IMG/VR virus record: IMGVR_UViG_3300028887_000067 | Span: 32,001-96,000 of that record | Length of the DNA stretch: 64,000 bases | From: a virus | Lineage: Duplodnaviria > Caudoviricetes | Reading direction: 5' to 3' (one strand) | In this document: one piece after another, positions 25,388 through 64,000 of the stretch | Position numbering within the stretch: position 1 is the first letter of the stretch | How the letters are laid out: each line of letters begins with the position of its first letter | The notes under the pieces: generated by a model | Told to the model about the DNA's origin: nothing | Seen by the model: only the letters and a program-made list of their open reading frames with translations | The model's database searches: none | Made by a program: the position numbers and the translations under genes

Positions 25388-26974
25388 TCAATCCGGACGC
25401 TTATAGACGTATTTATAGTTGCCACAATCATAAATACGGTAGATATGACGCTCAAACATAATTTCGTGTTCGGTCTTGGTTGCATCAAACCCAGCTTCAA
25501 CCAGCTTGTGCTTCTGATATTGCATTCTGTTAGCCAAAGAGTCGCCTACGACATAGTAATACGACGGCTCGGTAACACCTTCAAGCGTAAATCCAATTTT
25601 TTCATAGAACGCACCGTTACCGGACCAGCGACGGTCAGCAAAACTGACAACACTCTCCGGATTATGATCTATCAGATAATGAGTAAATAACTTACTGGCA
25701 CCGCCTACGACAGAAACATCGGGGACGGTACAATACCGTAACAATTCCATCACGTCCTTGGAATATCTTCCTGGGCCAAACGTCATCAACGCAACCAAAT
25801 CGGTTCCATTGTACAGGCCATAACGGTGCGTCGAACCGACACACGCTCCCTGAATATGATACTTATCCAAAAATGCGTTGGACGTATCGAAATCGACAAG
25901 CTTAACCTCACAAGTTCTTGCATAAATTTTGCGACGTACTGCACCCAATATAATAGCTAGACGCGCCTTAACGATGTCTTGCTTGTACTCCCATTCATTA
26001 GAAAATATATGGATCAGATGATAACCAGCTTTTTCGGCTAATTCGGTCTTCATCAAATGATAATCATTAGGACGGTACAATTCGTTATGCCAATGAATTC
26101 CGTCGTACTCTATAATCAATTTCTTAGACTCAACCACGATGTCGGCTCCATAGACACCCATGAAAGCTCGATCATAGTGTTCCGTGGTAAAGCCCAAGCT
26201 CTCAACATATTTACGTAGGTTATCCTCCGCGATAGAAGACCAAGCATCCTTCGGCTTACAATGCGAGCACGGCGTACAACCGAGATTATCCCGGTTCTTG
26301 ATATACAAATCTTGCTCCGTCATCGTCTCGCCACAAACATTGCACTTAAACGTGATTTCCTTCTTGTTACCGAACTCAATCAGTTCGCAGTTGTATTTTG
26401 AAAGAAGTTCGGTATACCCATTTATAGCAGCTTCACGATTTTTGCAGAAGTAATAAGGTACACCGATTCGTTTCATATTAGCGGCTTGCAACTTCTGCTG
26501 GAACTCCGGCAATTCTATATAAGATTTGACTCCATACCGCTCCATATTGGATGTATGGTACTTATTAACAAAATCCTTGTGCTGCGAATAGAACTCGACT
26601 CCATGACGCTCGACCATCGTAGCCTTTCGCGTTTCCAGTATCTTTTGATTATACTCGCCGTTGGATTCTTCATTCAGCTTTGTAACAGTTTCTTGGCGAG
26701 CCGCTGTCTTATGAGCGTTACGTTCTGAATCCTTTGCGATATGTTGAGCAGCACACCTCTTAGAGCAAAATTCTTTATAGCCTTGGCCAATCGACCGAAA
26801 ACTGGTAGGTTTACCACATTCGGCGCACTTACCCTCACCCGGCTTAGCGAGATACTGGTCATAGTATTGCTGGGGGTTTAAGCCGTGAGTTTTCCAAAGG
26901 TGTGTTCCCAAAGAACACGCCTTCTCGTATTCGACTATTTTTCCAGACCGTTCACAAATAAGACATCTATGCAT
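25388..26974 (-). CDS. Free-standing homing endonuclease-like protein (Zn-finger, ERYGV repeats, Vsr/PD-(D/E)xK nuclease, C-terminal GNAT-like domain)
   Basis: 'ADIVVESKKLIIEYDGIHWH', 'YARTCEV...HIQG...GGASKLF...FADRRWS'; visibly more AT-rich than neighbours; has its own promoter and terminator. Confidence 0.75.
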   Translation of the reverse strand: MHRCLICERSGKIVEYEKACSLGTHLWKTHGLNPQQYYDQYLAKPGEGKCAECGKPTSFRSIGQGYKEFCSKRCAAQHIAKDSERNAHKTAARQETVTKLNEESNGEYNQKILETRKATMVERHGVEFYSQHKDFVNKYHTSNMERYGVKSYIELPEFQQKLQAANMKRIGVPYYFCKNREAAINGYTELLSKYNCELIEFGNKKEITFKCNVCGETMTEQDLYIKNRDNLGCTPCSHCKPKDAWSSIAEDNLRKYVESLGFTTEHYDRAFMGVYGADIVVESKKLIIEYDGIHWHNELYRPNDYHLMKTELAEKAGYHLIHIFSNEWEYKQDIVKARLAIILGAVRRKIYARTCEVKLVDFDTSNAFLDKYHIQGACVGSTHRYGLYNGTDLVALMTFGPGRYSKDVMELLRYCTVPDVSVVGGASKLFTHYLIDHNPESVVSFADRRWSGNGAFYEKIGFTLEGVTEPSYYYVVGDSLANRMQYQKHKLVEAGFDATKTEHEIMFERHIYRIYDCGNYKYVYKRPD

Positions 26975-47998: not shown

Positions 47999-48339
47999 TT
48001 CCTCGAATAGCTTCTTGCCAGCGCATCTTCATCAAACATATTTTCAATATTGACCTGGTGCATATTGATTACATAGCCGTTTTTATAATCGAACTCGGGA
48101 TCTTTCGGATTCAACACCCGAATCCCATGCTGAACGCACTGATCAGCCAACCAGCCCAAATCGATACTGCTACCGATAACAATGCTATCAAACCCAACCG
48201 GATCACCCTTACCGGCAAACTGCAGTACACGATGTTCCAAAGTGAAGTACGTAAAGAACGTGCGTTGTTCTTCCGACTCATTTTCTATCGATTGGATTGT
48301 CGTTTCGGATACTGGTTCTGTAGTCATAAGATATCTCAC
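47995..48339 (-). CDS. Hypothetical protein (114 aa)
   Basis: 4-nt overlaps with both neighbours. Confidence 0.6.
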   Translation of the reverse strand: MRYLMTTEPVSETTIQSIENESEEQRTFFTYFTLEHRVLQFAGKGDPVGFDSIVIGSSIDLGWLADQCVQHGIRVLNPKDPEFDYKNGYVINMHQVNIENMFDEDALARSYSRK

Positions 48340-50129
48340 AGGAAAAATTTCTTTTTAAATGTTCCACCGGTCTTGTTGACCTTGGACTCGTGTTTCGCCT
48401 TGGCCTTCTCTGCGGCCTTCTTCTTACGTTCCATCAGCATCGCCTCGTCAACGCTCGCCTCGTAAATCCCATCGAGATGGATCTCGTTTATAGGAATCTC
48501 GTCCTTAGCGTAATACATCTTTCGAGTCTCATAATGCTGCATCATATAGTTGTACTTGAGTCGTGGAGGCCCACCCCTTCTCGGGTTCGTGAAATACGAA
48601 GCGTCGTCCACCAAGTCATATACGAAGGCCATCTTCTTTTCCTTGTGAGGACGGACAATACGACCAATAGACTGCATCACCATATACACAGACTTTGCAG
48701 GGTCGGCCATCACCAGATTATGCAACAACTTTATGTTCACACCCTGCTGTAAACAACCATACGTCGCGAGAATGATATGCCCCGTAGAAAATTCAAGCGA
48801 CTTTCGTATCGACTCGCGTACGTCAACGGTCACCTTACCCGTGATGACGTGCAGCTTGAACGCCGGAAAATTATCGCGAAGGAAAGCCTCCATCAGTTCA
48901 AGATTCTCAATGAACTTGAAAAGGATGACGGTATTCTGCTTCTCCGTTATCTTTCCGGAGTCAATCAAGAGCTTCATTACATCACGTCGCGAACTCGTGC
49001 TAGAACAGAACGCTCGCTCGTCGTCAAACGTCGAATATCCGATCGTACGTCGCAACGAATGGGGGTACGGAATAAAAATCGCATTTACGGTAACCGGCGT
49101 CAGGATTCCCTTGTCGATGAGTTCCTTCAATCGGACAATCTCTTCCTTACGCCCGAGCTGGCTCTCGATATAGCCAGCGTCGATACCATCGTCGGGCAGC
49201 GTGCCCGACACGCCGATCTTGAAATCAACCGCGTTGACGCATTTCATCAAAATGTCGCGAAGCTTCACTCCTCTCGACGAATGCGCCTCGTCAACAATAA
49301 CAGCCGAAAAGCACTCGAAGAATTTAGCCGGCTTCCTCTGCAAGGACTGCCAGGTCGATATGGTGATATCCTTCAGCATAACTTCTTCGCCGAGATTCGC
49401 TTCCTCGAGCCGCTTCTTTTGCACCTTTGTCAACTTGTCGTCGGAATCCGCATAGATCAACGTACAATGGCGCTTGGCATCTTCCCATCCATAATCATTG
49501 TAAAAATCGGAATAGAGCTGCTCAACCAAGTTTGTCGACGGAACGATAATCAGGATCTTCTTGCGTTCCCGTTCGAGCAAATAGCGAGCAATAATACACA
49601 TAGACAGAGACTTACCCGAACTCGTACACGCCAGCAACGATATGCGACGACCATTGAGCGCCCGTTCCACCAGACGCAACTGGTGCTCATACGGAGTGAT
49701 CTCGAAATTTTCGACCCTGTTGTGAAGTTTCAATGTCTTCGCATACGCGAACACGTCGTCACGGCACAACATCCCCTTCGGCGGGGTATAAATATCGCGG
49801 ATTGCCTTCGTCAACGCGATTCGGGTACCGAAGCGGTTCTTTACAAGCGAACTTACCCTCGGGATCAATCCGATAGGCAACAAATGGGTAGACTTGTTGT
49901 AGAAATACACAAACGGAGTCTTGAAACCTTCCCTCACGGCCCACGTGTTAGCCACGGCCTTGTCATAGAAGGTCATACTGCCGAAAATGAAATTATTGAG
50001 CCTGTTACCCTCTGTAGGCGAAACAGAGGCTATTTTCAATACCGAAAACACGTCGTCGGCCTTGTCGAACGTAATCGCCGTAAGCGGTTTTTCCTGGTCA
50101 GCTTCCTTTACATCGGTATCTGCCATCAC
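48336..50129 (-). CDS. uvsW: SF2 helicase UvsW-like
   Basis: 'PYEHQ', 'CTSSGKS', 'ISTWQSL', 'VDEAH', 'SGT', 'QSIGRIVR', 'YDLVDD'. Confidence 0.9.
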   Translation of the reverse strand: MMADTDVKEADQEKPLTAITFDKADDVFSVLKIASVSPTEGNRLNNFIFGSMTFYDKAVANTWAVREGFKTPFVYFYNKSTHLLPIGLIPRVSSLVKNRFGTRIALTKAIRDIYTPPKGMLCRDDVFAYAKTLKLHNRVENFEITPYEHQLRLVERALNGRRISLLACTSSGKSLSMCIIARYLLERERKKILIIVPSTNLVEQLYSDFYNDYGWEDAKRHCTLIYADSDDKLTKVQKKRLEEANLGEEVMLKDITISTWQSLQRKPAKFFECFSAVIVDEAHSSRGVKLRDILMKCVNAVDFKIGVSGTLPDDGIDAGYIESQLGRKEEIVRLKELIDKGILTPVTVNAIFIPYPHSLRRTIGYSTFDDERAFCSSTSSRRDVMKLLIDSGKITEKQNTVILFKFIENLELMEAFLRDNFPAFKLHVITGKVTVDVRESIRKSLEFSTGHIILATYGCLQQGVNIKLLHNLVMADPAKSVYMVMQSIGRIVRPHKEKKMAFVYDLVDDASYFTNPRRGGPPRLKYNYMMQHYETRKMYYAKDEIPINEIHLDGIYEASVDEAMLMERKKKAAEKAKAKHESKVNKTGGTFKKKFFL

Positions 50130-50698
50130 AGCACCTCGTAATAACCCTTGACCGGAGACGCGGATATGTCAATCGAGTCGGGAACCGTGTCGCCCTTGAT
50201 AACATTGTCACGGAAAAACGCAGGGGTGCCCAGCACGACACCGAGGCCCGTATCTGACTTATCGAGCGCGAACACCATCCGGTAAGTCGCGTTCGGCATC
50301 ACGAAATTCTGTGTTTGGTTGAACACGTTCCAGGCCGGCCGGTCGACACCCTTCGGAGCCGGTATGCACTCAAGCCTGCGCATGAAACGGCGCAGTTCGC
50401 CCACGTCCTTGTGGACGCGCATACCAACGGCTCTCGCCAGTCGCTGGCCGATGTCCGGCGGCAGACCCTCGCCATAATCGCGGTCCACCGCCACCATTCG
50501 TGACCGAGGCACATCCCGACCCAGTAACCTAGGCTCGGTATCGATTTCGACCTCGGCATCCGGCTTCATACGAACGCACGGATTACCGAAGCCGGCATAC
50601 TGCCACGAAAACAAGGAAACTAGTTGAACGGTAAAAATCATCTCACTTGTCAGATAGTCGTTGCCATCGAAAATAGCAATAACAAGTTTTAAACTCAA
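50126..50698 (-). CDS. Hypothetical protein (190 aa)
   Basis: Overlaps the uvsW start; TTG start is uncertain. Confidence 0.55.
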   Translation of the reverse strand: MSLKLVIAIFDGNDYLTSEMIFTVQLVSLFSWQYAGFGNPCVRMKPDAEVEIDTEPRLLGRDVPRSRMVAVDRDYGEGLPPDIGQRLARAVGMRVHKDVGELRRFMRRLECIPAPKGVDRPAWNVFNQTQNFVMPNATYRMVFALDKSDTGLGVVLGTPAFFRDNVIKGDTVPDSIDISASPVKGYYEVL

Positions 50699-50772
50699 AT
50701 TACTTCAAAAACGCCTGAAAAAGGTGAAACATATATATGTGCAGTTGATTTGCGCTTTCTATATTTGGGCGC

Positions 50773-51459
50773 ATGGACACGAGCGAATTTTTGAAAATAC
50801 AGACCAACCTGGTAGACAACATCTCCTTCGAAGACATCATCACGACCGACGGCATAAAGACCATCGCCGGCGTCGACACTGCCTACTGGAACAACTCCGG
50901 GCGCGAGTACGGCGTATGCTGCATCGTCGTGATCGACGTCGCAACCTGCGCTCCCATAGAGAAAAAGTACGCGACTGGGCCAATCGATATGCCGTACATT
51001 CCGGGGTTCCTCGCCTTCCGCGAGCTCCCGCTGTTCGAGAAGGCGCTTTCCAAGCTGGAAACCAAGCCGGACCTGTTCATGTTCGACGGGAACGGCGTGC
51101 TCCATCCCAGAAATATGGGAATCGCCACCCACGCCTCGTTCCTCGTGAACGTCCCCACAATCGGCGTGGCCAAGACCTTCTACAAGGTGGCCGACGACGC
51201 GGACTACGTGCTCCCGCCAAACCAGGTGGGCGCCTCCACCCGGATAACCTACAACGGGACCGAACTGGGGCTGGCAGTCCGGACGCGTCTAAACACGCTC
51301 CCCGTGTTCGTTTCGGTAGGTAACCGCATATCCCTGCAGACGGCCAAGGACATCGTCATGAGGGTCGTCACCAAGGACAGCCGAATCCCCTGCCCCACCC
51401 GTCAGGCCGATCTCTACAGCCATGACTGCCGAAACATGCTGAAAACGGCGTCGGACTAG
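50773..51459 (+). CDS. nfi: Endonuclease V (deoxyinosine 3' endonuclease)
   Basis: 'IAGVDTAY', 'PYIPGFLAFRE', 'FDGNGVLHPR..GIATH', 'PTIGVAK', 'PVFVSVG', 'RIP.PTRQAD' all intact. Confidence 0.93.
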   Translation: MDTSEFLKIQTNLVDNISFEDIITTDGIKTIAGVDTAYWNNSGREYGVCCIVVIDVATCAPIEKKYATGPIDMPYIPGFLAFRELPLFEKALSKLETKPDLFMFDGNGVLHPRNMGIATHASFLVNVPTIGVAKTFYKVADDADYVLPPNQVGASTRITYNGTELGLAVRTRLNTLPVFVSVGNRISLQTAKDIVMRVVTKDSRIPCPTRQADLYSHDCRNMLKTASD

Positions 51460-51477
51460 CACCGCCGGTCTTCCCCG

Positions 51478-51504
51478 GAGGCCCCTTTCCAGGGGTCTTT
51501 TTTT
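51478..51504 (+). terminator. Intrinsic terminator after nfi
   Basis: GAGGCCCCT-TTCC-AGGGGTCTT followed by a T-run. Confidence 0.8.
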
Positions 51505-51687
51505 GTACCTTTTTCCCCCTATAAAAGAGGAAACATATATTCGGTACTCCCGAAGGCTTACTTGCGTGGCTCGTTTAGGGCCTACGCAGGAGGGGGTTAG
51601 GGCAAGGGGAGCATAAACTCCTGTCCGGCAAAGGGGGAGGATACGGGGGTGTCGATCCAAAGATCTGAAAAAAGAACGTGGAAAGAC
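51505..51687. other. Structured G-tract-rich intergenic element; candidate replication origin
   Basis: Six runs of 3-5 G on the + strand, several hairpins, and an apparent strand-skew switch nearby. Confidence 0.45.
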
Positions 51688-51716
51688 TTGACGATCAAAT
51701 TTGTTTTTTGTAGCTT
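51688..51716 (+). promoter_or_regulatory. Sigma70-type promoter TTGACG-N17-TAGCTT
   Basis: Near-consensus -35 with 17-nt spacer, 11 nt before ATG 51728. Confidence 0.65.
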
Positions 51717-51727
51717 TGTCCTGACGA

Positions 51728-53314
51728 ATGAGACCTAGGCACTACAAAATAATGCTCCCCGAGCCTGTCCTTGCGGACCTGAAGACCGTCATAGCGGACT
51801 ACTTCAAGGTCGAAGGCGTGTCCAAACGGACAAAAACATTTGTGGATAGCTTGGCCTTTTTCCTCTCCGTCGTCACCAAGTCCCTTATTTCCGACCACAA
51901 GAAGAACGAAGTGTCATCCCTCGACCACAGGGTGCCGAAGGACCACTGGTGTACCCATCTCTACTCCCCCATACTTCGTAATATCTTCGGTAACGGCTAC
52001 ATTGAAGTGGTGGAATTCCTTGTCCAGCATGGATTTATAGGCCGTTCCGGGCATTACGAGAAAGGGAACGCCAATACCCGTGGCAAGAGCAAGGCGTACT
52101 GGTTTACATCGAAATACGGTACGTACCTTGCCAAGTACCTGAATAGCCGTTCGCTGAAGAAGTACTCGAACGAGTCCGTCAAGGTGGTCGGAAAGATGCG
52201 TGCCTACACGATAACGTCCAAGACCGTTCTTGACCGCTGGTTCGGCGTACTCTCGGAACGCAAGTTTGTTTCCAGGATGGATCCCGTGGTCGACGCCTGT
52301 TATGAGAACCTGGAGCACTTCTCCATCGATATGAAGGCGGCTGACTCCACGATAGCGAAGCTGCGTTCCGAAGGCAAGATGTCGAAGTACAAGGAGCGTC
52401 TGGAACGCGAGAAGATTAAGCGTTTCAACGAGTCCTCGACCGAGCCGTACGCAATGTACGTCAAGCACGACAGGTATGGCCGAATCCATACCAACGTGAC
52501 CTGTATGAAGAAGGAACTCAGGGCGTCGGCACTTCGCTGTGACGGGGAATACGTGGCCGAAGTTGATATCAAGTCGAGCCAGATTGCCTTCCTAGTCCCC
52601 ATATTCAGGCGTTTCATCGATATTTACCGTGGAAAGGTCGAGATGAATGAGGACTCCTTCATCCAGTTCAGGCCGTTCTGGGCCGATGGGATGCAGGATA
52701 GTGTTCTCGAGAAGATGGACATAGAGCTGGGCCTGTTCGAGCACCTTGTGAAGACTCATTCGGTCTACGAATACTTCATGAAGGAGCTGAACGACGATTA
52801 CGAGCTCGATATGGTGGTGGACAGGAGCATTGCCAAGGACGGCGTCGTGTCGTTCCTGTTCTCGCCTCGCTATTTCGACGAGGAAAAGGAGCCGGTGCGT
52901 GCCGCCGTCAAGCGCTCGTGGGAAGAGAACTTCCCGACGCTACTTACTTGCCTCTACTCGATGAAGCACAATTGCCACGCCGCGCTCGCCTACGAGCTGC
53001 AGAAGGTCGAAAGCGACTACATCTTCTACAAGGTATGTCCGAGGATTACCCGCGAACTGGGTTGCCCGTATTGCACGGTTCACGACTCGGTCATCGTGCC
53101 GAAGCGTTTAGGGGCCCGTCTGCAGTCCATAATGGACGAGGAGCTTGCCAACCTTGGCATCCCGACAGTCACCGATGTTGAGTACTACGACATGGTGGAG
53201 GCATCCATGCCCTACCTGCCGGACGAGTTCTTTATCGACGAAATGAAGTTGCGCGGTATCAAGACGGTCGATGTCGACGATTTGATCGATTCGGTGGAAT
53301 ATCCGGAAGAATGA
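51728..53314 (+). CDS. Family-A-like (TV-Pol type) polymerase with N-terminal winged-helix-like region, no exonuclease domain
   Basis: 'YGRIHT', motif A 'EVDIKSSQ', motif B-like 'RSIAKDGVVSFLF', 'LQKVES', motif C 'TVHDSV'; N-terminal 'VEFLVQHGFI...GKSKAYWF'. Confidence 0.7.
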   Translation: MRPRHYKIMLPEPVLADLKTVIADYFKVEGVSKRTKTFVDSLAFFLSVVTKSLISDHKKNEVSSLDHRVPKDHWCTHLYSPILRNIFGNGYIEVVEFLVQHGFIGRSGHYEKGNANTRGKSKAYWFTSKYGTYLAKYLNSRSLKKYSNESVKVVGKMRAYTITSKTVLDRWFGVLSERKFVSRMDPVVDACYENLEHFSIDMKAADSTIAKLRSEGKMSKYKERLEREKIKRFNESSTEPYAMYVKHDRYGRIHTNVTCMKKELRASALRCDGEYVAEVDIKSSQIAFLVPIFRRFIDIYRGKVEMNEDSFIQFRPFWADGMQDSVLEKMDIELGLFEHLVKTHSVYEYFMKELNDDYELDMVVDRSIAKDGVVSFLFSPRYFDEEKEPVRAAVKRSWEENFPTLLTCLYSMKHNCHAALAYELQKVESDYIFYKVCPRITRELGCPYCTVHDSVIVPKRLGARLQSIMDEELANLGIPTVTDVEYYDMVEASMPYLPDEFFIDEMKLRGIKTVDVDDLIDSVEYPEE

Positions 53315-56531: not shown

Positions 56532-58475
56532 TTAGTTGATGTCGGAGTAGAGCTTGCTCGCGTCCTTCTTCTCGATGAGGAAGCATCCCCTCTTATTTCG
56601 GAACATCGCCTTCAGCATCACGCAACGGATACCGCCGAACAATGCCGAGAACAGGGTTCCGGGTTTAACTTCGCTCCGGCTGAACTTTGCTTGTTTTGGC
56701 ACGAGAATATAGTAAGGAACCGTGTCGTCGTTGTTACGTATTTCCTCAAGCAGCTCGGACTGGGTAAGTCCGTCGGAATACTTGGCATAGGTCCGGAACG
56801 ACTTGGTATAGTCGAGTACGTCGTAGAAGTTCTCAAGAAATTCCCTGGGCACGTCGACACTACCTTCGAACTCTGGGTCTACGCTGAAATACTTGATTGG
56901 GGTGACATTGATTGTGTCTTCCTGTTCGAGGTTATCAGTATCGACGCGTAGATAGTTCGGGACGCAGATGGTTCCTGGGTCGATGGCGAACTTCTTGAGC
57001 AGTTCAAGAGACGCTCCATAGATGGCGCTCCAGATTCCGCCGTAACGCTTCTTGGCCTCCTTGAGCATTGCCTTGATCTTCTTGAAAGTACGCTTGCGGT
57101 CGGCCTCGTCGTTGGTACGGAACAGGTGAACCATGGCCTCGCTACTGAAATTGAGGAATGGATAACCGAAGTCAGTAATGACCGGCGTGTTCCAGACGGA
57201 TACATTGACCTGTCGACCGAATCCCTTGGGCATTTTGAACACGAGCGGTGCTTTCGCCTGACCCTGCGGGGCCGGTGCGCTCTGTTGAACGGGCTGGGCT
57301 GGAGTAGGTTCTTCCGGGGATTTGCCTCCGTGGATGGCGTTCAGAGTGTCGAAATCCGCAGGGTCGTACGGAACAGGTTCCGAGGGTGTCTGAGTAGGCG
57401 TCGGTTCCTGCGTCTCGACAGGGGCCTTCGTAGCCTTGTTTTTAGGACGCACGGGTTTGGCTACGCCCTGTTTTGTTGTGGGCGCTTTGGGTGGTTCCTG
57501 AGGTGGAACGGGTTCTGGTGCCGTCGGCTTTTCGACTGGGGCTGGTACGGGCTCGGGTGCTTTAGGCGGTTCTGCAGGAGCGGGCGTAGGAACTGGCTCG
57601 GGCGCTTTCGGCTTCTCAACCGGTGTTGGTACGGGCTCGGTCACCTTCGGCTTTTCTACAGGGGTTGGTGCAGGTTCAGTTGCCTTCGGCTTCTCAACCG
57701 GGGTTGGAGCAGGCTCAGGTGCCTTCGGCTTCTCAACCGGTGTTGGAGCAGGCTCAGGTGCCTTCGGCTTCTCAACCGGGGTTGGAGCAGGCTCGGGTGC
57801 CTTCGGCTTCTCAACCGGGGCTGGGACAGGCTCAGGTGCCTTTGGCTCTTCGACCGGGGTTGGAGCAGGCTTGGGTGCCGTCGGCTCTTCGACCGGGGCT
57901 GGCGTGGGCTCTTGTGCTTTCGTCGGTTCTGCGGGAGCAGGTTCCGGTGTGTTTTTAGGTTCGACCGTGGAGTTCGGCATCACGACCGGATCCGCCTTTA
58001 CGAAATCTCCCTTTGCCGGTTGGCCGGCTTTTTTCCCGGTAGGAGCCTTGAAGTCGTTAATCCCAAGTTTTCCTTCCCCGCCGTTGGCTACATTCTTGAA
58101 GGAATCCCAATCGATGTTCTCGATGTTGTATTCCTTGTTGGTCAACAGGAGGGTGAGAATGGACTTGCTGTCCTGTTTGCTCTTGCCGATGATATGGGCA
58201 AGCGTCGCTGCGTTCGCGACTTGGCGGATAACGGCTTCGTCGCCGGCTGAGGGATCGACCCGCTTTTCCATAATGAACGCAAGGTTATTGATAAGGAACA
58301 GGGGAAGGCAGATGTTCCTGACTTCCTCGTCACCTTTTGTCCTCTGCGAGTTCAAACCAACTACTTCGCTGGAGTCGAGCCCCAGTTTTGCGAGAATCGA
58401 CTTGATGTCGGCTTCGAGTTGCTTGCGTGCGTCGCTTCCGACCGTCTTGAGTTGGGCAAAGAGTTTCTTATCCAT
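56532..58475 (-). CDS. Late protein with long Pro-rich repeat linker (647 aa)
   Basis: ORF with TATAAACT at 58502-58509. Confidence 0.7.
   Translation of the reverse strand: MDKKLFAQLKTVGSDARKQLEADIKSILAKLGLDSSEVVGLNSQRTKGDEEVRNICLPLFLINNLAFIMEKRVDPSAGDEAVIRQVANAATLAHIIGKSKQDSKSILTLLLTNKEYNIENIDWDSFKNVANGGEGKLGINDFKAPTGKKAGQPAKGDFVKADPVVMPNSTVEPKNTPEPAPAEPTKAQEPTPAPVEEPTAPKPAPTPVEEPKAPEPVPAPVEKPKAPEPAPTPVEKPKAPEPAPTPVEKPKAPEPAPTPVEKPKATEPAPTPVEKPKVTEPVPTPVEKPKAPEPVPTPAPAEPPKAPEPVPAPVEKPTAPEPVPPQEPPKAPTTKQGVAKPVRPKNKATKAPVETQEPTPTQTPSEPVPYDPADFDTLNAIHGGKSPEEPTPAQPVQQSAPAPQGQAKAPLVFKMPKGFGRQVNVSVWNTPVITDFGYPFLNFSSEAMVHLFRTNDEADRKRTFKKIKAMLKEAKKRYGGIWSAIYGASLELLKKFAIDPGTICVPNYLRVDTDNLEQEDTINVTPIKYFSVDPEFEGSVDVPREFLENFYDVLDYTKSFRTYAKYSDGLTQSELLEEIRNNDDTVPYYILVPKQAKFSRSEVKPGTLFSALFGGIRCVMLKAMFRNKRGCFLIEKKDASKLYSDIN
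57480..57945 (-). repeat. 39-bp coding tandem repeat (PAPTPVEKPKAPE), about 11-12 degenerate copies
   Basis: Direct repeats such as GCCTTCGGCTTCTCAACCGG...GGAGCAGGCTC, with no spacers. Confidence 0.9.
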
Positions 58476-58574: not shown

Positions 58575-61500
58575 ATGAATCGTCCGTTAATTGAGGCATG
58601 GGACTTGAATACGATCAACGTGATGTTCCGTAACGCGTACGAACAGTTGATGAATGTCATTGGTGTCGGAAAGCTCGATGACGAGTCTCGACCGAGCGCC
58701 TATGCCCAAATTAGCTCGAAGACTATGGTCGGTGCAATTCTCGACCAGGTCGCCGCTCAAGTAGACTTTGCCAAATATAGTGGTGCAGTCCGTTATGCCG
58801 ACAGCACTTATATGTCCCGTAGAATCATATACCTTGTCGCCTGTATGATCCCTGCGGTTGCCGAATACTTTGCCAACCTGTTCGGCTCCATTGCATCTGA
58901 ATATCGTGGCGATGACCGAGCCAAGGCAGTTTTCGCGAGAAATTGGTTTGTGCAGCTTGCGGAAACCGCCCGTGTTCAAGACCGAGACAACCCTCTTTGC
59001 CAAGCTGCGGACGTGTTCGCGAAGTCTATGTACGACACTGTCAAGACCGGCGTCAAGTCCCGCCGGCAGACTGCTGTTGATGACGACAATACGGCAAATG
59101 CTGAAGTGACTAAAATTCTTGATGGGCTCACTGCCGACATGAATGAAACTCGTAACATGGTTTACGACATTCTTAGGGCCGTAGACCTTTCTCCCGATTC
59201 GGTATCGTCCGACCGAGTGAGCAAGGTCGTGTGGGTCATCTATACGCTTAAAGTTCTTGAAGCATACAAGGAAACCACATATAAGCAAAACAATCGCCGT
59301 ATTGATACATATAGCGGTATATTGTCGCACGCGCTTTTGTCTGAACCCGGAATATCGGGTGTCGCCGGTTCTGACTATGTACTGAAGTCGTTCCAAAACG
59401 ACACTGACGTAACCAATCAGCACGCGACGCTGTCCGATACTACCCGGTTTACCGCGAAGACCGTTGTGAAGCTGTTTGTCGGAAACTTTTCCAAGATGGT
59501 CGCACTATACCCGGCGTCGGCCAGTACTGGTTTTTCCGGACGTCCTGATAGGGTCAGTCGTAACGATATAATGAATGCCGTACAACTGATTTTTAACCAT
59601 CTCAGCCCGCGTATCAAGAAGGAACAAGTCACCCCCGAGTTCGTTGATAACTACATCCGTGATACCTTGTCACTGGATACGAGGCTCGCTCTTAACGTCC
59701 ACGACAAGATTACCGAGTATATGTTTGAAGGCGGCGCAAATGGCTTGAAGGAAACATTGACTGCTCAATACAAGAGTTCCGCCTATGCTGACCGAATCAT
59801 CAATGAGGTCGCTAGTTGCTTGATTTTTGTTGGCGACGACCAGGTGCTTGGACACCCGTATATGCCGGAAGAAATTTATTGCTTTGGTGAGCAGGGCTCC
59901 AACGACCGTGTCAAGACCAGCGGTCTTACGACTATCGGTGAACAAGTTGCAATTATTATGGTTCCGGATGGCGAATCTGTTCATGTGCATCAGATTAATC
60001 CGAGAACGAAATTTATGTCTGACGACGGGATTGGCGATAACTTCGGCGCCGAAGATATCGTCAGCTATGACGAAATCAAGGCAAAAGGCGATTCCTATGT
60101 GTCGCCTATCCTGGTACTTCTCCCAATTTCTGAGAGCATCTATGGCTGGTGTGCGCTTTCCGGCATTCAGGCTTTCTCGAAACTTGAGGGTGATGATTTT
60201 CAGGATGCTCGCGAAATCAACCCGGTGAACACCGAGATGGAACGTCGTATCGCCGCAAGCAAGCCGATTAACTTGGCTATATACGGCGGTAAGGGTGATG
60301 TCCGAATTGACCACTATGCGCAGAACAGCTCGACGCCGGACAAGTATGCGATGCGTAGTATTGTAGCGAGTTTGAATACCGAGGATATGCGAAGGAAAAT
60401 GGTCCGTACTGGACTTGCTTCTCCTAGCGATTCGGATCAAGATTATGTTGACAAAGCAGCGACCGTCATCAAAATGTGCAATGCGGTCGACAAGGCGGCT
60501 GGCGACGGCGCCGGGAAGAATATGGGTCAGAAGCTGACCGATATAGCGGCTATCGCTAAGGAATATACCGGCGCTGTAAACCAGTATATCAGTGATTGTC
60601 CGGCTGTAATGGAACGAGGCCTTGCTAACATTGTGCAGCAAAAGGTTTACTCGGTTGGACCGACTATTTCCCAGATGATTACGTTTGGGGATATTGCCGT
60701 TCGTGCCTCCGTTGCTCGATTTGCCTGCGAGTTGATGAAGGACGAGGATTCCGACACCTCGGGTCAAATTGATATGGCTATCCGCTTTCTGTTCAATGCG
60801 GTTGCTGTTGCCGATTATCTGAAGGGCAAATACAAGACCGGTGAAGAAATCGCCAAGAATCAAAAGGCTCTTGGACATGTGAAGACCTTTATGGAGCAAT
60901 ACGGGCAGTTTGTCCGTTGGGCGTCCGAGAATGTTCCTGAACTCAAATCGGAATTGAAGACGATTGACGAGGCCGTTGAATACGGAAATACTGATGACGC
61001 GATTAAGTTGCTTGTGGATCCTACTAGCGTTCAGCGTTGGACGTCATGGATATCGAAGTGCTATGGGTATGCCGTATCGAAATCCGGCGGGATGCAGAAT
61101 CAGGTCTATGCCGAGCTCATTAAGAATATTGAACACTTGTTGAACTCTTGGTCCGGGGTGGTCAACTCGATTAAAACACGTGGATTGACTACGGCGGATA
61201 TAGGCCAGGTGCGCAATATTCTCGTGAACCTTTCCGGCAATCAGGGCGGGTTTACAAAGTTTAATGAAATGTATACGCCGACGCAGCTGTTGATTACGTT
61301 GCGTAAGATTGGCCATATTAACACGGCCGAGGAGGAAACTGTCGATACTCAGGAAATGAACCTGAACAACATCGACCTTTCCGATACCCGCGAGGCCGCG
61401 CCCGTATCCGTGTTTGATCCGGAAAATAAGAACGCGCTTGACCTTGAGCTTGCTAATCGTCAGATTACCGGTGATTCCGGTACCGAGTTGTACACGGGTC

Positions 61501-64000
61501 AGGATGAAAAACCAGACAACATGGCCGGCTTCCGTGCCCAAATGGATGATGAATCCGTGAAGGATGTGGACAAGCTGCTTCTCGGAATGTCCCATATCGG
61601 TGGCCTTGTTGCCCAAGAAAATGATTACAAAGACTTGTTCTACGAAATTAAGTCTATGGCATCTGAAGATGGCATCGGCGTAACTGCCAACGCGCAGAAT
61701 GCCAATGTCGAGGCAATCAAGCGCAAGCTTGCCGAAATTTCTACCGAACTGCAACGGGCTCGCGATATTACTGGAAAGTTCGTTGAAAAGAACGTGCTGA
61801 CTCAGACCGTTTATAGAGTTGTCAGCAATAAGATGATGTCCGTCGACGATATCAAGCGTGCCGAGGGGATTTTCGATACGGCCAACGATATCGCAGTCGA
61901 CCTTGTCGACGAGCGCAACGGAGTGGTTAATGCGTACACCAAGGACGACACTTCGACCATTGCGCAGCTCTTGAGTGTGCTCGGCGCTTCGGCGTTCTCT
62001 CCGGACTTCATCGATATGGGCGAACTCTCGTCAATGCTTGGTAGCCTCAGACAGTATGTTGCTCACGCGAGTGGAAACCCCGCTTCCGTCAAGGCTATTG
62101 ATTACGCCGTTAAGGAAGTTTCCCAATATTCCGACTCGCAGAATAATTCCGTGGAGACTAACGCGGACCTGTTCGTCGTTCTGGCGAAGCTGATGAATTC
62201 GATTGGCCGTCTTGTGAAGAGTGATGCCAATGACAACGCCAGCTATCTCAATTCCGTCAAGGGACTGCATTATGATAGGCCGTCGAGCTTCAAGAAGGTG
62301 GAGAAGGGTGACCTGCGCGGTCTTGACCTTGACAACCCGATTGACGCGTTTGCTCGTGCCAGAATCCGCCCGCTGTCCTTGAAGAACACCGGCGAGGTTA
62401 CTGATACGGAGCGACTCGAGGCTAATATGTACGTCGATAGCGTCTTCGACGCGATGAAGGAAAATCCGACGCTTGCCAAGTACGCGTATGCTTTGGGCAA
62501 GGCGATGGCCGAGTTCGGTCGTAGCGTGGTTTCTGACGACGACAGATTTTCGACCAATGAGCGCCTTAACCGTCAGTTCAACTCAATCTACAAGAGCGTG
62601 GTCGATAAGAACATGCTTTACGGCGATATCGCCAAGACACTACCACAGCGGATTGTTCTCAATGCGATTATCGACGACGAACGCCTTGGCGACAAGACGT
62701 ACAAGCGTACCCGCCAGACTGTCGAGAATATGACCGACAACTCCAACCTCCAGCTGCTTGACACGTCGTTCAAGTCGGTCGGTCAGGGAAAGGCCCATCG
62801 CCTTGCCGGAAACCCGCTTTATCGCAAGACCTCCGACTACTCGATGTCTTATGCCAAGGGTGACGGTGAGCTGGTCCAGGCCGGCCGTGGCCAGTACCTT
62901 GACGATGAAGGCAAGGAGGAAATTATTTCATCGTGGTTCAACCCTGATAACCCGACTAGCTCCACGAATATTATCGACCGCGTGAAGTCGGCCCGTCAGT
63001 ATGTATGCGGCGTTATTGCCGATCGAATCGGAACGCTGGACGAGTTCTCCGACGAGGTCAACCTTACTAACGGCAAGACTTCCGATGAGCTCAAGGCGGC
63101 GGTACGTTCGATTCATGCGCTCGCATCTGACCTTGATACGCCTATCGCCGATGTCATTGTCGCGACGACCTCCCTTGGCCAGAAGAATGCACGAAAGGCC
63201 TTGCTGGTGAATGCCCGCGAAGCGCTGACTAGCGGACGTGAGGATTATAGCGTTGACGATATGGCCGTGGTTGCCAATGAGATTAACGTGTTCCCGCAAA
63301 GACTCTCGTCCATTGTATCTTATGTCGATACCGACTGGGTCGATGGTATGACACGCCTCGTATCGGCCATTCCTGAACAGATGAGCGTGGCCGATGTTGT
63401 GGGCGCGGTCAATATGTATTGTGGTTCGCTTTCACAACGGCAGAAGATGATGGCCGACGAGAATACAAAGGTTATGTACCGGATTCTCGCTAACCTGCAG
63501 AGCATGAGTTCCGAACAGGGTGTTCCCATCGGATATTTCGGCGATAACCGTTATGAGGCCAATCAGAACCTGAAGAGCCTGTTCAAGGTTATCTGCTCGT
63601 TCAAGACGGCGGACAATACTTGGGATGATGTTGCCGAACGTATCGGTGCGATAATGAGCGAAAGTGTCGAGCGGGGTGACCGTACTCGTAAGGTTGATGG
63701 GGGCCCGACCCCGTCCCAGCCCGCTCGCGAGCGTATAGCCCATCTCCGTATGAACCCGTACTACTCTTATCGTACAACCGGGGATACTCAGGAAAACTTC
63801 GACGAGGTTCAGCGCATACTGGTCAATTCCGGTTATGCCAAGCCGAGTAAGTCGGGCCATTCCGTCAAGTTGCCGTATGACGGCGTGGTCATTGACAAGA
63901 ATACGTTCCGTTACTGGGTTGGCGCCATCGCATCCGACTTCGAAAAGAACCACATCGAGATTGATGATGAGGTCGCCGGTGACGTATTCGGATATATGGA
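58575..64000 (+). CDS. Giant late protein, >1800 aa, runs off right end (missing from ORF track)
   Basis: ATG 58575 reads MNRPLIEAWDLNTINVMFRNAYEQ...; frame open in all lines I translated, at start and end; the track lists no terminated ORF in this frame. Confidence 0.85.
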   Translation, partial: MNRPLIEAWDLNTINVMFRNAYEQLMNVIGVGKLDDESRPSAYAQISSKTMVGAILDQVAAQVDFAKYSGAVRYADSTYMSRRIIYLVACMIPAVAEYFANLFGSIASEYRGDDRAKAVFARNWFVQLAETARVQDRDNPLCQAADVFAKSMYDTVKTGVKSRRQTAVDDDNTANAEVTKILDGLTADMNETRNMVYDILRAVDLSPDSVSSDRVSKVVWVIYTLKVLEAYKETTYKQNNRRIDTYSGILSHALLSEPGISGVAGSDYVLKSFQNDTDVTNQHATLSDTTRFTAKTVVKLFVGNFSKMVALYPASASTGFSGRPDRVSRNDIMNAVQLIFNHLSPRIKKEQVTPEFVDNYIRDTLSLDTRLALNVHDKITEYMFEGGANGLKETLTAQYKSSAYADRIINEVASCLIFVGDDQVLGHPYMPEEIYCFGEQGSNDRVKTSGLTTIGEQVAIIMVPDGESVHVHQINPRTKFMSDDGIGDNFGAEDIVSYDEIKAKGDSYVSPILVLLPISESIYGWCALSGIQAFSKLEGDDFQDAREINPVNTEMERRIAASKPINLAIYGGKGDVRIDHYAQNSSTPDKYAMRSIVASLNTEDMRRKMVRTGLASPSDSDQDYVDKAATVIKMCNAVDKAAGDGAGKNMGQKLTDIAAIAKEYTGAVNQYISDCPAVMERGLANIVQQKVYSVGPTISQMITFGDIAVRASVARFACELMKDEDSDTSGQIDMAIRFLFNAVAVADYLKGKYKTGEEIAKNQKALGHVKTFMEQYGQFVRWASENVPELKSELKTIDEAVEYGNTDDAIKLLVDPTSVQRWTSWISKCYGYAVSKSGGMQNQVYAELIKNIEHLLNSWSGVVNSIKTRGLTTADIGQVRNILVNLSGNQGGFTKFNEMYTPTQLLITLRKIGHINTAEEETVDTQEMNLNNIDLSDTREAAPVSVFDPENKNALDLELANRQITGDSGTELYTGQDEKPDNMAGFRAQMDDESVKDVDKLLLGMSHIGGLVAQENDYKDLFYEIKSMASEDGIGVTANAQNANVEAIKRKLAEISTELQRARDITGKFVEKNVLTQTVYRVVSNKMMSVDDIKRAEGIFDTANDIAVDLVDERNGVVNAYTKDDTSTIAQLLSVLGASAFSPDFIDMGELSSMLGSLRQYVAHASGNPASVKAIDYAVKEVSQYSDSQNNSVETNADLFVVLAKLMNSIGRLVKSDANDNASYLNSVKGLHYDRPSSFKKVEKGDLRGLDLDNPIDAFARARIRPLSLKNTGEVTDTERLEANMYVDSVFDAMKENPTLAKYAYALGKAMAEFGRSVVSDDDRFSTNERLNRQFNSIYKSVVDKNMLYGDIAKTLPQRIVLNAIIDDERLGDKTYKRTRQTVENMTDNSNLQLLDTSFKSVGQGKAHRLAGNPLYRKTSDYSMSYAKGDGELVQAGRGQYLDDEGKEEIISSWFNPDNPTSSTNIIDRVKSARQYVCGVIADRIGTLDEFSDEVNLTNGKTSDELKAAVRSIHALASDLDTPIADVIVATTSLGQKNARKALLVNAREALTSGREDYSVDDMAVVANEINVFPQRLSSIVSYVDTDWVDGMTRLVSAIPEQMSVADVVGAVNMYCGSLSQRQKMMADENTKVMYRILANLQSMSSEQGVPIGYFGDNRYEANQNLKSLFKVICSFKTADNTWDDVAERIGAIMSESVERGDRTRKVDGGPTPSQPARERIAHLRMNPYYSYRTTGDTQENFDEVQRILVNSGYAKPSKSGHSVKLPYDGVVIDKNTFRYWVGAIASDFEKNHIEIDDEVAGDVFGYM

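Follow-up and report, generated by a model that had tools for sequence, protein, structure and literature searches.

The primary origin of phage T7 and the mitochondrial origins are primed by a single-subunit RNA polymerase (RNAP); the origins of phage T4 are R-loops, in which a transcript of host RNAP is the primer and which are removed by the T4 protein UvsW. TV-Pol consists of a minimal superfamily-A core with no nuclease domain and was predicted to be a primase-polymerase (Iyer, Abhiman, Aravind 2008, PMC2579912), and an enzyme of the TV-Pol group, CcPol-MP, primes de novo (bioRxiv 10.1101/2022.12.02.518924). In barbaviruses and related phages, divPolA2 is a second polymerase to which no definite role was assigned: repair and RNA polymerase roles were proposed, a tie to origins was not made, and the N-terminal domain was not called a wHTH (Yutin et al. 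2024, PMC11348598). In PLE-like satellites, the place of the RepA_N initiator is taken by a gene with a "DNA Pol I domain" (Netter et al., PMC9410903).

The stretch of DNA analyzed here (64,000 nt; referred to as the window) corresponds to bases 32,001-96,000 of a T4-like rumen phage contig (308,245 bp; 81% complete), which was best represented in a bovine gut metagenome run and encodes a T4-like major head protein, PolB, a DnaB-like helicase, and a primase. Other, independent assemblies spanned the locus without rearrangement, and the contigs of close homologues were binned with Fibrobacter, Prevotella, and Bacteroidaceae. The features of the locus (window coordinates) are as follows.

48336-50129, minus strand: SF2 (UvsW-like) helicase gene (phrog_16, E 5e-70)
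50670-50698, minus strand: leftward promoter-like site, read from the sequence, of the same class as the site at 51688 and positioned for the UvsW-like helicase operon
50726-50741, plus strand: box 1, with the first 11 nt the same as in box 2 (both copies are perfect in the relative G001)
50773-51459, plus strand: endonuclease V gene (PF04493, E 6.5e-64), between the two boxes
51477-51505, plus strand: intrinsic-terminator-like hairpin with a T run, after the endonuclease V gene
51530-51545, plus strand: box 2, GAAACATATATTCGGT, a conserved candidate binding site
51589-51650, plus strand: G-rich tract (30 G in 62 nt)
51613-51620, plus strand: ATAAACTC, a genome-wide promoter-like motif (27 of 31 copies intergenic, at most 200 nt from a start)
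51688-51718, plus strand: promoter-like site TTGACG-17-TAGCTTTG, recognized by consensus match and conservation
51728-53314, plus strand: gene for a 528-aa protein with a wHTH-like N-domain and a minimal family-A polymerase, a candidate initiator-primase (ORF, model, and alignment)
51728-52237, plus strand: N-terminal domain (residues 1-170) with a winged-helix-like core at residues ~33-131, matched at the class level
52253-53197, plus strand: family-A polymerase core (residues 176-490) with R252, D280, R366/K370, Q425, E428, and H452-D453

We infer the name UvsW for the SF2 helicase; upstream genes of equal size and strand to it were found across the rumen clade. The endonuclease V gene is missing at this place in most relatives and was, therefore, probably inserted. 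The 160-aa gene downstream of the polymerase gene had no Pfam or PHROG match. Elsewhere in the window, a homing endonuclease gene (25388-26974, minus strand; phrog_3339, E 9e-115) directly follows the major head gene, a 647-aa protein (56532-58475, minus strand) contains a long Pro/Glu/Lys/Thr repeat region and was placed in no family, and a 1,994-aa ORF with no PHROG match (58575-64000, plus strand) is the first of the rightward block. The gap in front of the polymerase gene had been singled out for its length in a first-pass annotation of this DNA: its 268 bp make it the third longest in the window (by our own gene calls), but 37 of 206 gaps were equally long genome-wide.

ORF calling returned the 528-aa frame on the plus strand as originally annotated, and the start codon at 51728 was accepted because relatives open with the same MRPR and have no Met at position 9. 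No significant match was obtained for the protein with Pfam or PHROG, and 1,327 relatives were collected at E values of up to 0.001. In the predicted structure of the full chain (pLDDT 93), the N-domain and polymerase core were the only parts, with no room for an exonuclease, in agreement with the claimed lack of a proofreading domain. When residues 1-170 were modelled alone (pLDDT 94), a fold search mostly returned winged-helix domains with modest Z scores of 5-6: ORC2 WH (Z 6.0), CooA (Z 5.5; rmsd 2.3 over 73 residues), and also TFE, Fur, and Cdc6. The wHTH-like N-terminus claimed earlier is, at the class level, supported by this predicted structure. The fold check suggested for the protein recovered a family-A polymerase fold in the remainder, also from the predicted structure: residues 176-490 matched Pol theta (Z 14.5; rmsd 3.5; 251 aligned) and Klenow (Z 14.3).

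The palm motifs named previously were both present, as motif A (DIKSSQ, with D280) and motif C (TVHDSV, with D453), and the two Asp residues were invariant; the sequence given as "K...LF" was also found, and corresponds to motif B (R366-x3-K370...F378). A GRIH hairpin carries R252. Among 135 homologues, R252, D280, Q285, Y347, K370, E428, H452, and D453 were invariant, and R366 and F378 were kept in 117 and 110, respectively. Since the catalytic residues are invariant in these homologues, the enzyme is probably active.

These alignments and models also bear on a different reading, raised for divPolA2 by Yutin et al. (PMC11348598), in which the protein would be a miniature single-subunit RNAP, the boxes its promoters, and the product an RNA primer or R-loop as with the T7 and mitochondrial enzymes. 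The HDS of motif C is as in T7 RNAP, the best PDB sequence match was N4 RNAP2 (E 0.019), and residues 176-490 matched the yeast mitochondrial RNAP (Z 13.2; rmsd of 10 in a whole-chain alignment) and T7 RNAP (Z 10.9). On the other hand, DNA polymerases outranked RNAPs in both fold searches. In contrast to T7-like RNAPs, which have a small residue (Gly) at the steric gate and Tyr at Y639, the invariant Q285 presumably occupies the steric-gate position and F378 presumably that of Y639, while Q425 presumably matches Q849 of Pol I (Klenow/T7 numbering; register aligned by eye). We lean toward DNA chemistry, which Q285 and Q425 favor in spite of the RNAP-like HDS, and a miniature RNAP appears to be quite improbable.

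A fold search with the 528-aa protein returned Barba31A of a Rheinheimera Barba phage (E 1.2e-6; predicted structure), which is the divPolA2 of Yutin et al. and has an ICP1 gene among its homologues; a profile match was found with Barba8A (E 6.5e-7 per genome). In the ICP1 proteome, the family profile gave one significant match, gp100 (E 9e-11); conversely, the 528-aa protein came first in a search with a profile built from nine divPolA2 proteins (E 0.002). The family and divPolA2 were reciprocal best hits in these searches, with weak profile scores. The type protein of the divPolA2 paper (AUR84708) was below the threshold with the family profile, and a quick tree placed the family as a separate long-branch clade beside divPolA2; these sequence comparisons suggest that the family stands next to divPolA2 as its sister group and not clearly within it. 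An intact PolA palm, the absence of an exonuclease, and an N-terminal globular domain are common to both, and in both cases the enzyme accompanies a regular replicative polymerase. divPolA1 (Flavobacterium immuto phage type) differs in having an inactivated exonuclease domain, of which there is no counterpart in the 528-aa model, and the family profile did not match immuto_3-5A.

The gp100 gene occupies 58,951-60,618 of ICP1_2006_E, and a coverage peak in that isolate placed the bidirectional theta origin of ICP1 "near the 60 kb position" (Barth et al., PMC7145576). Since this is an approximate position, from a strain in which CRISPR/cas2-3 was deleted, the offset between gp100 and the origin is uncertain by a few kb, and the coincidence is itself approximate: 3 kb on each side of the peak amounts to ~5% of the genome. 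No initiator for this origin was named in the ICP1 literature that we found, and a literature search of incomplete coverage returned nothing on ICP1 gp100 or on an origin linkage of such enzymes. At gp100, ICP1 isolates had one or the other of two highly divergent alleles (L194:8227-9714 and L196:18951-20618 vs. L195:9001-10305); the isolate 2017_Dha_A had no gp98-gp102 labels and encoded a 434-aa paralogue with 42% identity to the Vibrio 1.063.O protein. It appears that a replicon module was exchanged.

In the raw cumulative GC skew of the whole 308-kb contig, the minimum lay inside the gap (window 51551). Because raw skew tracks gene direction, a two-arm model was fitted to four-fold degenerate sites, with co-oriented and head-on genes separated. 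By skew only, the origin in this genome was placed at +272 from the gene start (-728 to +2272 within 10 log-likelihood units), and those in the relatives G001, G002, and G008 at -964, -601, and -314, respectively; in G003 it was at +3252, with the gene itself within 2 log-likelihood units. Intergenic GC skew flipped at the locus in all five rumen genomes, which, as relatives with common synteny, count as approximately one event. From a separate phage lineage, a genome-wide fit was obtained only for G006, a 572-kb phage on another branch of the family, in which the origin was placed at +148 with a weaker signal (dLL 54).

A skew switch may also arise with no origin, from the divergent transcription of virion and replication blocks together with differences between gene classes, in which case the protein would be an accessory repair polymerase. 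Gene orientation indeed diverges across 50.7-58.5 kb, the three minus-strand genes on the right include low-complexity proteins, and skew tracks transcription in small divPolA2 phages. Furthermore, a first four-state codon model had its maximum at 58.0-58.5 kb, where the main switch in gene orientation lies, and a lower plateau at 51.5-53.5 kb; we attributed the shift from the skew-only peak to GC-content differences between gene classes, and set this model aside as confounded by GC content. However, the switch was kept at four-fold sites within each strand class and in intergenic DNA, and was also found in G008 and G006 in spite of a different local gene order, while the fitted terminus in the rumen genomes was 0.35-0.49 of the contig away. 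In minus-strand genes across the gap, TA4 was +0.48 on the left vs. +0.01 on the right, with a p value (2e-11) that is nominal because sites within one gene are not independent. A transcriptional switch with no origin is, therefore, considered to be very unlikely.

The coincidence of homologues with skew inflections, put forward initially as a check, was found in this genome and its clade, but not in several distant homologues. In four megaphages and the provirus G007, the origin was not placed at the gene: two genomes had no two-arm signal and three appeared to be unidirectional. Six small divPolA2 phages, including ICP1, gave no strand-corrected signal (dLL under 30). Since ICP1 has a real theta origin with no corrected skew, negative genomes are weak evidence against the assignment. 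An origin at this locus is very probable. The strand-corrected skew of LR756502, LR756511, and G007 was unidirectional over 91-96% of the genome, as rolling-circle replication predicts; a smaller local skew shift was still present at the homologue in LR756511 and G007.

The element originally assigned to this origin was the G-rich tract. Twenty other loci in the genome were equally G- or C-rich, and relatives with ~70% protein identity had no equivalent tract; a G-tract or G-quadruplex element was rejected, the tract being neither conserved nor unique, and the analogy drawn from it with T7- and T4-type origins fails for lack of conservation. The proposal of a bidirectional origin with a dedicated enzyme is well supported by skew and fold, but not with the G-tract as its element. 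A strong G/C tract cluster in a long intergenic region outside the window (280.5-281.2 kb of the genome) is a better quadruplex candidate.

Conservation instead marks two boxes in direct orientation; they have an AAACAT core and AT-rich flanks, and are candidate binding sites on the basis of sequence. Of 21 rumen loci, 11 had an exact direct repeat of 16-25 nt in front of the gene (with the AAACAT core in 10), whereas direct repeats of at least 15 nt were present in 4 of 182 control regions. The exact repeats were the same within one genome and differed between genomes, and the copies were mostly 96-186 bp apart. In the present genome, the identity between the copies is limited to the first 11 nt, and the box is nearly unique to the polymerase locus. 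The endonuclease V gene separates the copies here (50726 and 51530) and in G001; the element, therefore, extends from ~50670 to 51720, beyond the limits of 51460-51727 drawn in the first-pass annotation. No clear box pair was found in the G003 subclade or in ICP1. Two other roles were excluded: box 1 is not a plain endonuclease V promoter, because both boxes are kept in relatives with no endonuclease V gene, and the boxes are not a general promoter class, being nearly locus-specific. In this genome and G001, the skew signal survived the presence of an endonuclease V gene with its own terminator within the putative origin; the spacing of the boxes may, thus, be non-critical, or box 2 alone may be enough.

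Each box has AT-rich DNA on its 5' side: a 40-mer (70% AT) starts at 51498, just 5' of box 2, and the 40-mer with the highest AT content around the locus (80%; within the top 0.02% for the window) overlaps the promoter-like site at 50670-50698, the G001 equivalent of which also scored. Promoter-like sites of one class point outward on either side of the element. The rightward site (51688-51718) fits this class, TTG-N5-CAAA-N11-TAnnTT, which was also found before the PolB gene, and would give a near-leaderless mRNA. Of the host-type promoter claimed for the polymerase gene, a conserved promoter-like site remains, but an E. coli sigma70 scan was negative. By analogy with T4, ATAAACTC is probably a late-class motif. 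Another motif, GGACTAGCAC (window 51453-51462), was unique in this genome and recurred at varying positions in the gap of the relatives L002, L003, L005, L006, and L008.

We consider it somewhat more probable than its alternatives together (~55%) that the main bidirectional theta origin lies at 50.7-51.7 kb, with the 528-aa protein as its dedicated origin-binding initiator-primase. PolB, a helicase, and a primase are encoded in the same genome, and the enzyme is, therefore, not needed for elongation or Okazaki priming; since this enzyme, with its putative DNA-binding head, lies next to conserved boxes and to the skew point, it is the probable starter of replication at this site. The analysis recovered a polymerase fold with its active site intact, the conserved boxes, a promoter class, and the strand-asymmetry switch at the locus; from these, we infer binding, melting, priming, and hand-off at the boxes, in the following order. 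The protein would be made early, together with replication genes, and its winged-helix domain would bind the two direct boxes; the AT-rich DNA on their 5' side would open, and the family-A core would make a short primer with no pre-existing primer (more likely DNA than RNA, as judged from the active-site residues). This primer would be handed to the phage PolB, and the DnaB-like helicase and primase would set up two forks. The position of gp100 near the mapped origin of ICP1, priming by CcPol-MP, and the Pol I domain gene of PLE-like satellites were counted in favor of this initiator role. Counted against it were the G003 subclade and ICP1, with no clear box pair, the homologues on plasmids and islands (see below), the megaphages and G007 with off-gene placement, the lack of skew in ICP1, and the SSB partner that CcPol needs for priming, no equivalent of which was identified here.

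The same origin may instead be primed in the T4 manner, by R-loops of host RNAP from the divergent promoters; the protein would then extend or repair DNA, or regulate its own gene via the boxes, and early gene dosage or synteny would keep it near the origin. The boxes lie between divergent promoter-like sites and have AT-rich DNA beside them, a UvsW-like helicase gene adjoins the locus, the active-site residues resemble those of primer-dependent DNA polymerases, and repair was suggested for divPolA2 (Yutin et al., PMC11348598). However, R-loop priming leaves unexplained why a non-proofreading polymerase has a winged-helix head and why the box pair changes in concert between genomes. Nor does it account for the location of the gene, which in G006 coincides with the fitted origin and in ICP1 is close to the mapped one, in spite of different neighbors. 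We regard it as unlikely, and prefer the initiator-primase reading.

Homologues of the 528-aa protein were found in bins of Bacteroidota, Planctomycetota, and Verrucomicrobiota, a spread similar to that of TV-Pol, and also on plasmids with another rep gene or in chromosomal islands; one distant bacterial homologue had an integrase nearby. Plasmid searches returned two homologues, neither of which was the sole rep gene: a full-length Hymenobacter homologue (L264:2824-4398), the plasmid of which also has its own rep gene, and a short Thioclava homologue (L275:5629-6564) directly after an IS21 element. In LR756511 (L054:9458-11904), the homologue is directly followed by a gene for a 428-aa Pfam DNA_pol_A protein, which did not match the family profile, and then by an AAA_3 ATPase gene. 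A search of genome contigs with P0073 gave no match. P0201 (406 aa; 1.9-kb contig), in which a 75%-identical third of the polymerase protein is joined to Peptidase_C10 domains, is probably an assembly chimera.

To our knowledge, the role of a sequence-specific initiator-primase is known for the AEP and DnaG folds and for transcribing RNAPs, and not for the architecture of a wHTH plus a family-A polymerase. The locus bears on how large T4-like phages and ICP1 begin bidirectional replication; if the initiator reading is true, a family-A polymerase acts in this role, divPolA2 genes gain a function, and ICP1 gp100 is one gene with which to test the idea in an existing laboratory phage-host system. 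A widespread initiator class, in which an origin-binding winged helix and a family-A enzyme prime theta replication in T4-like jumbo phages and, via the divPolA2 branch, in ICP1 (gp100), is suggested tentatively, at somewhat less than even odds.

In comparison with the known systems, the leading strand is primed at a fixed AT-rich origin by a transcript or an enzyme of superfamily A in T7, mitochondria, and T4, as would also be the case at this locus; those origins use large transcribing RNAPs or host RNAP, whereas the enzyme here has 528 aa and a DNA-polymerase-like active site. The catalytic features of TV-Pol were recovered: the hairpin with an absolutely conserved Arg (R252; 135 of 135 homologues), the RRM palm and its pair of catalytic Asp (D280 and D453, both invariant; residues 176-490 matched by fold), the RxxxK of the fingers with an acidic residue (R366 in 117, K370 in 135, and E428, a Glu in place of Asp, in all 135), and the absence of a nuclease domain. 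TV-Pol has a two-helix coiled-coil thumb, and two short helices (202-214 and 220-237) precede the hairpin in the model. The context differs: TV-Pol genes are accompanied by D5 helicase, resolvase, integrase, or transposase genes, and the present gene by those of endonuclease V, an SF2 helicase, and proteins of no known function, being, unlike TV-Pol, inherited in place in jumbo phages. The family profile did not match the Ma-LMM01 genome in a first pass with a loose filter. The putative TV-Pol membership assumed in the first-pass annotation, thus, agrees with the catalytic features but not with the context, and the nearest sequence-linked named family is divPolA2. CcPol-MP and the PolA-SSB primases of SCCmec need a separate OB-fold partner, with a helicase and recombinase alongside (bioRxiv 10.1101/2022.12.02.518924; PMC7581432). 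The 528-aa protein has a fused wHTH-like domain and site-like boxes in place of this OB-fold partner, and by analogy may work like CcPol-MP, with the fused DNA-binding domain replacing the SSB partner.
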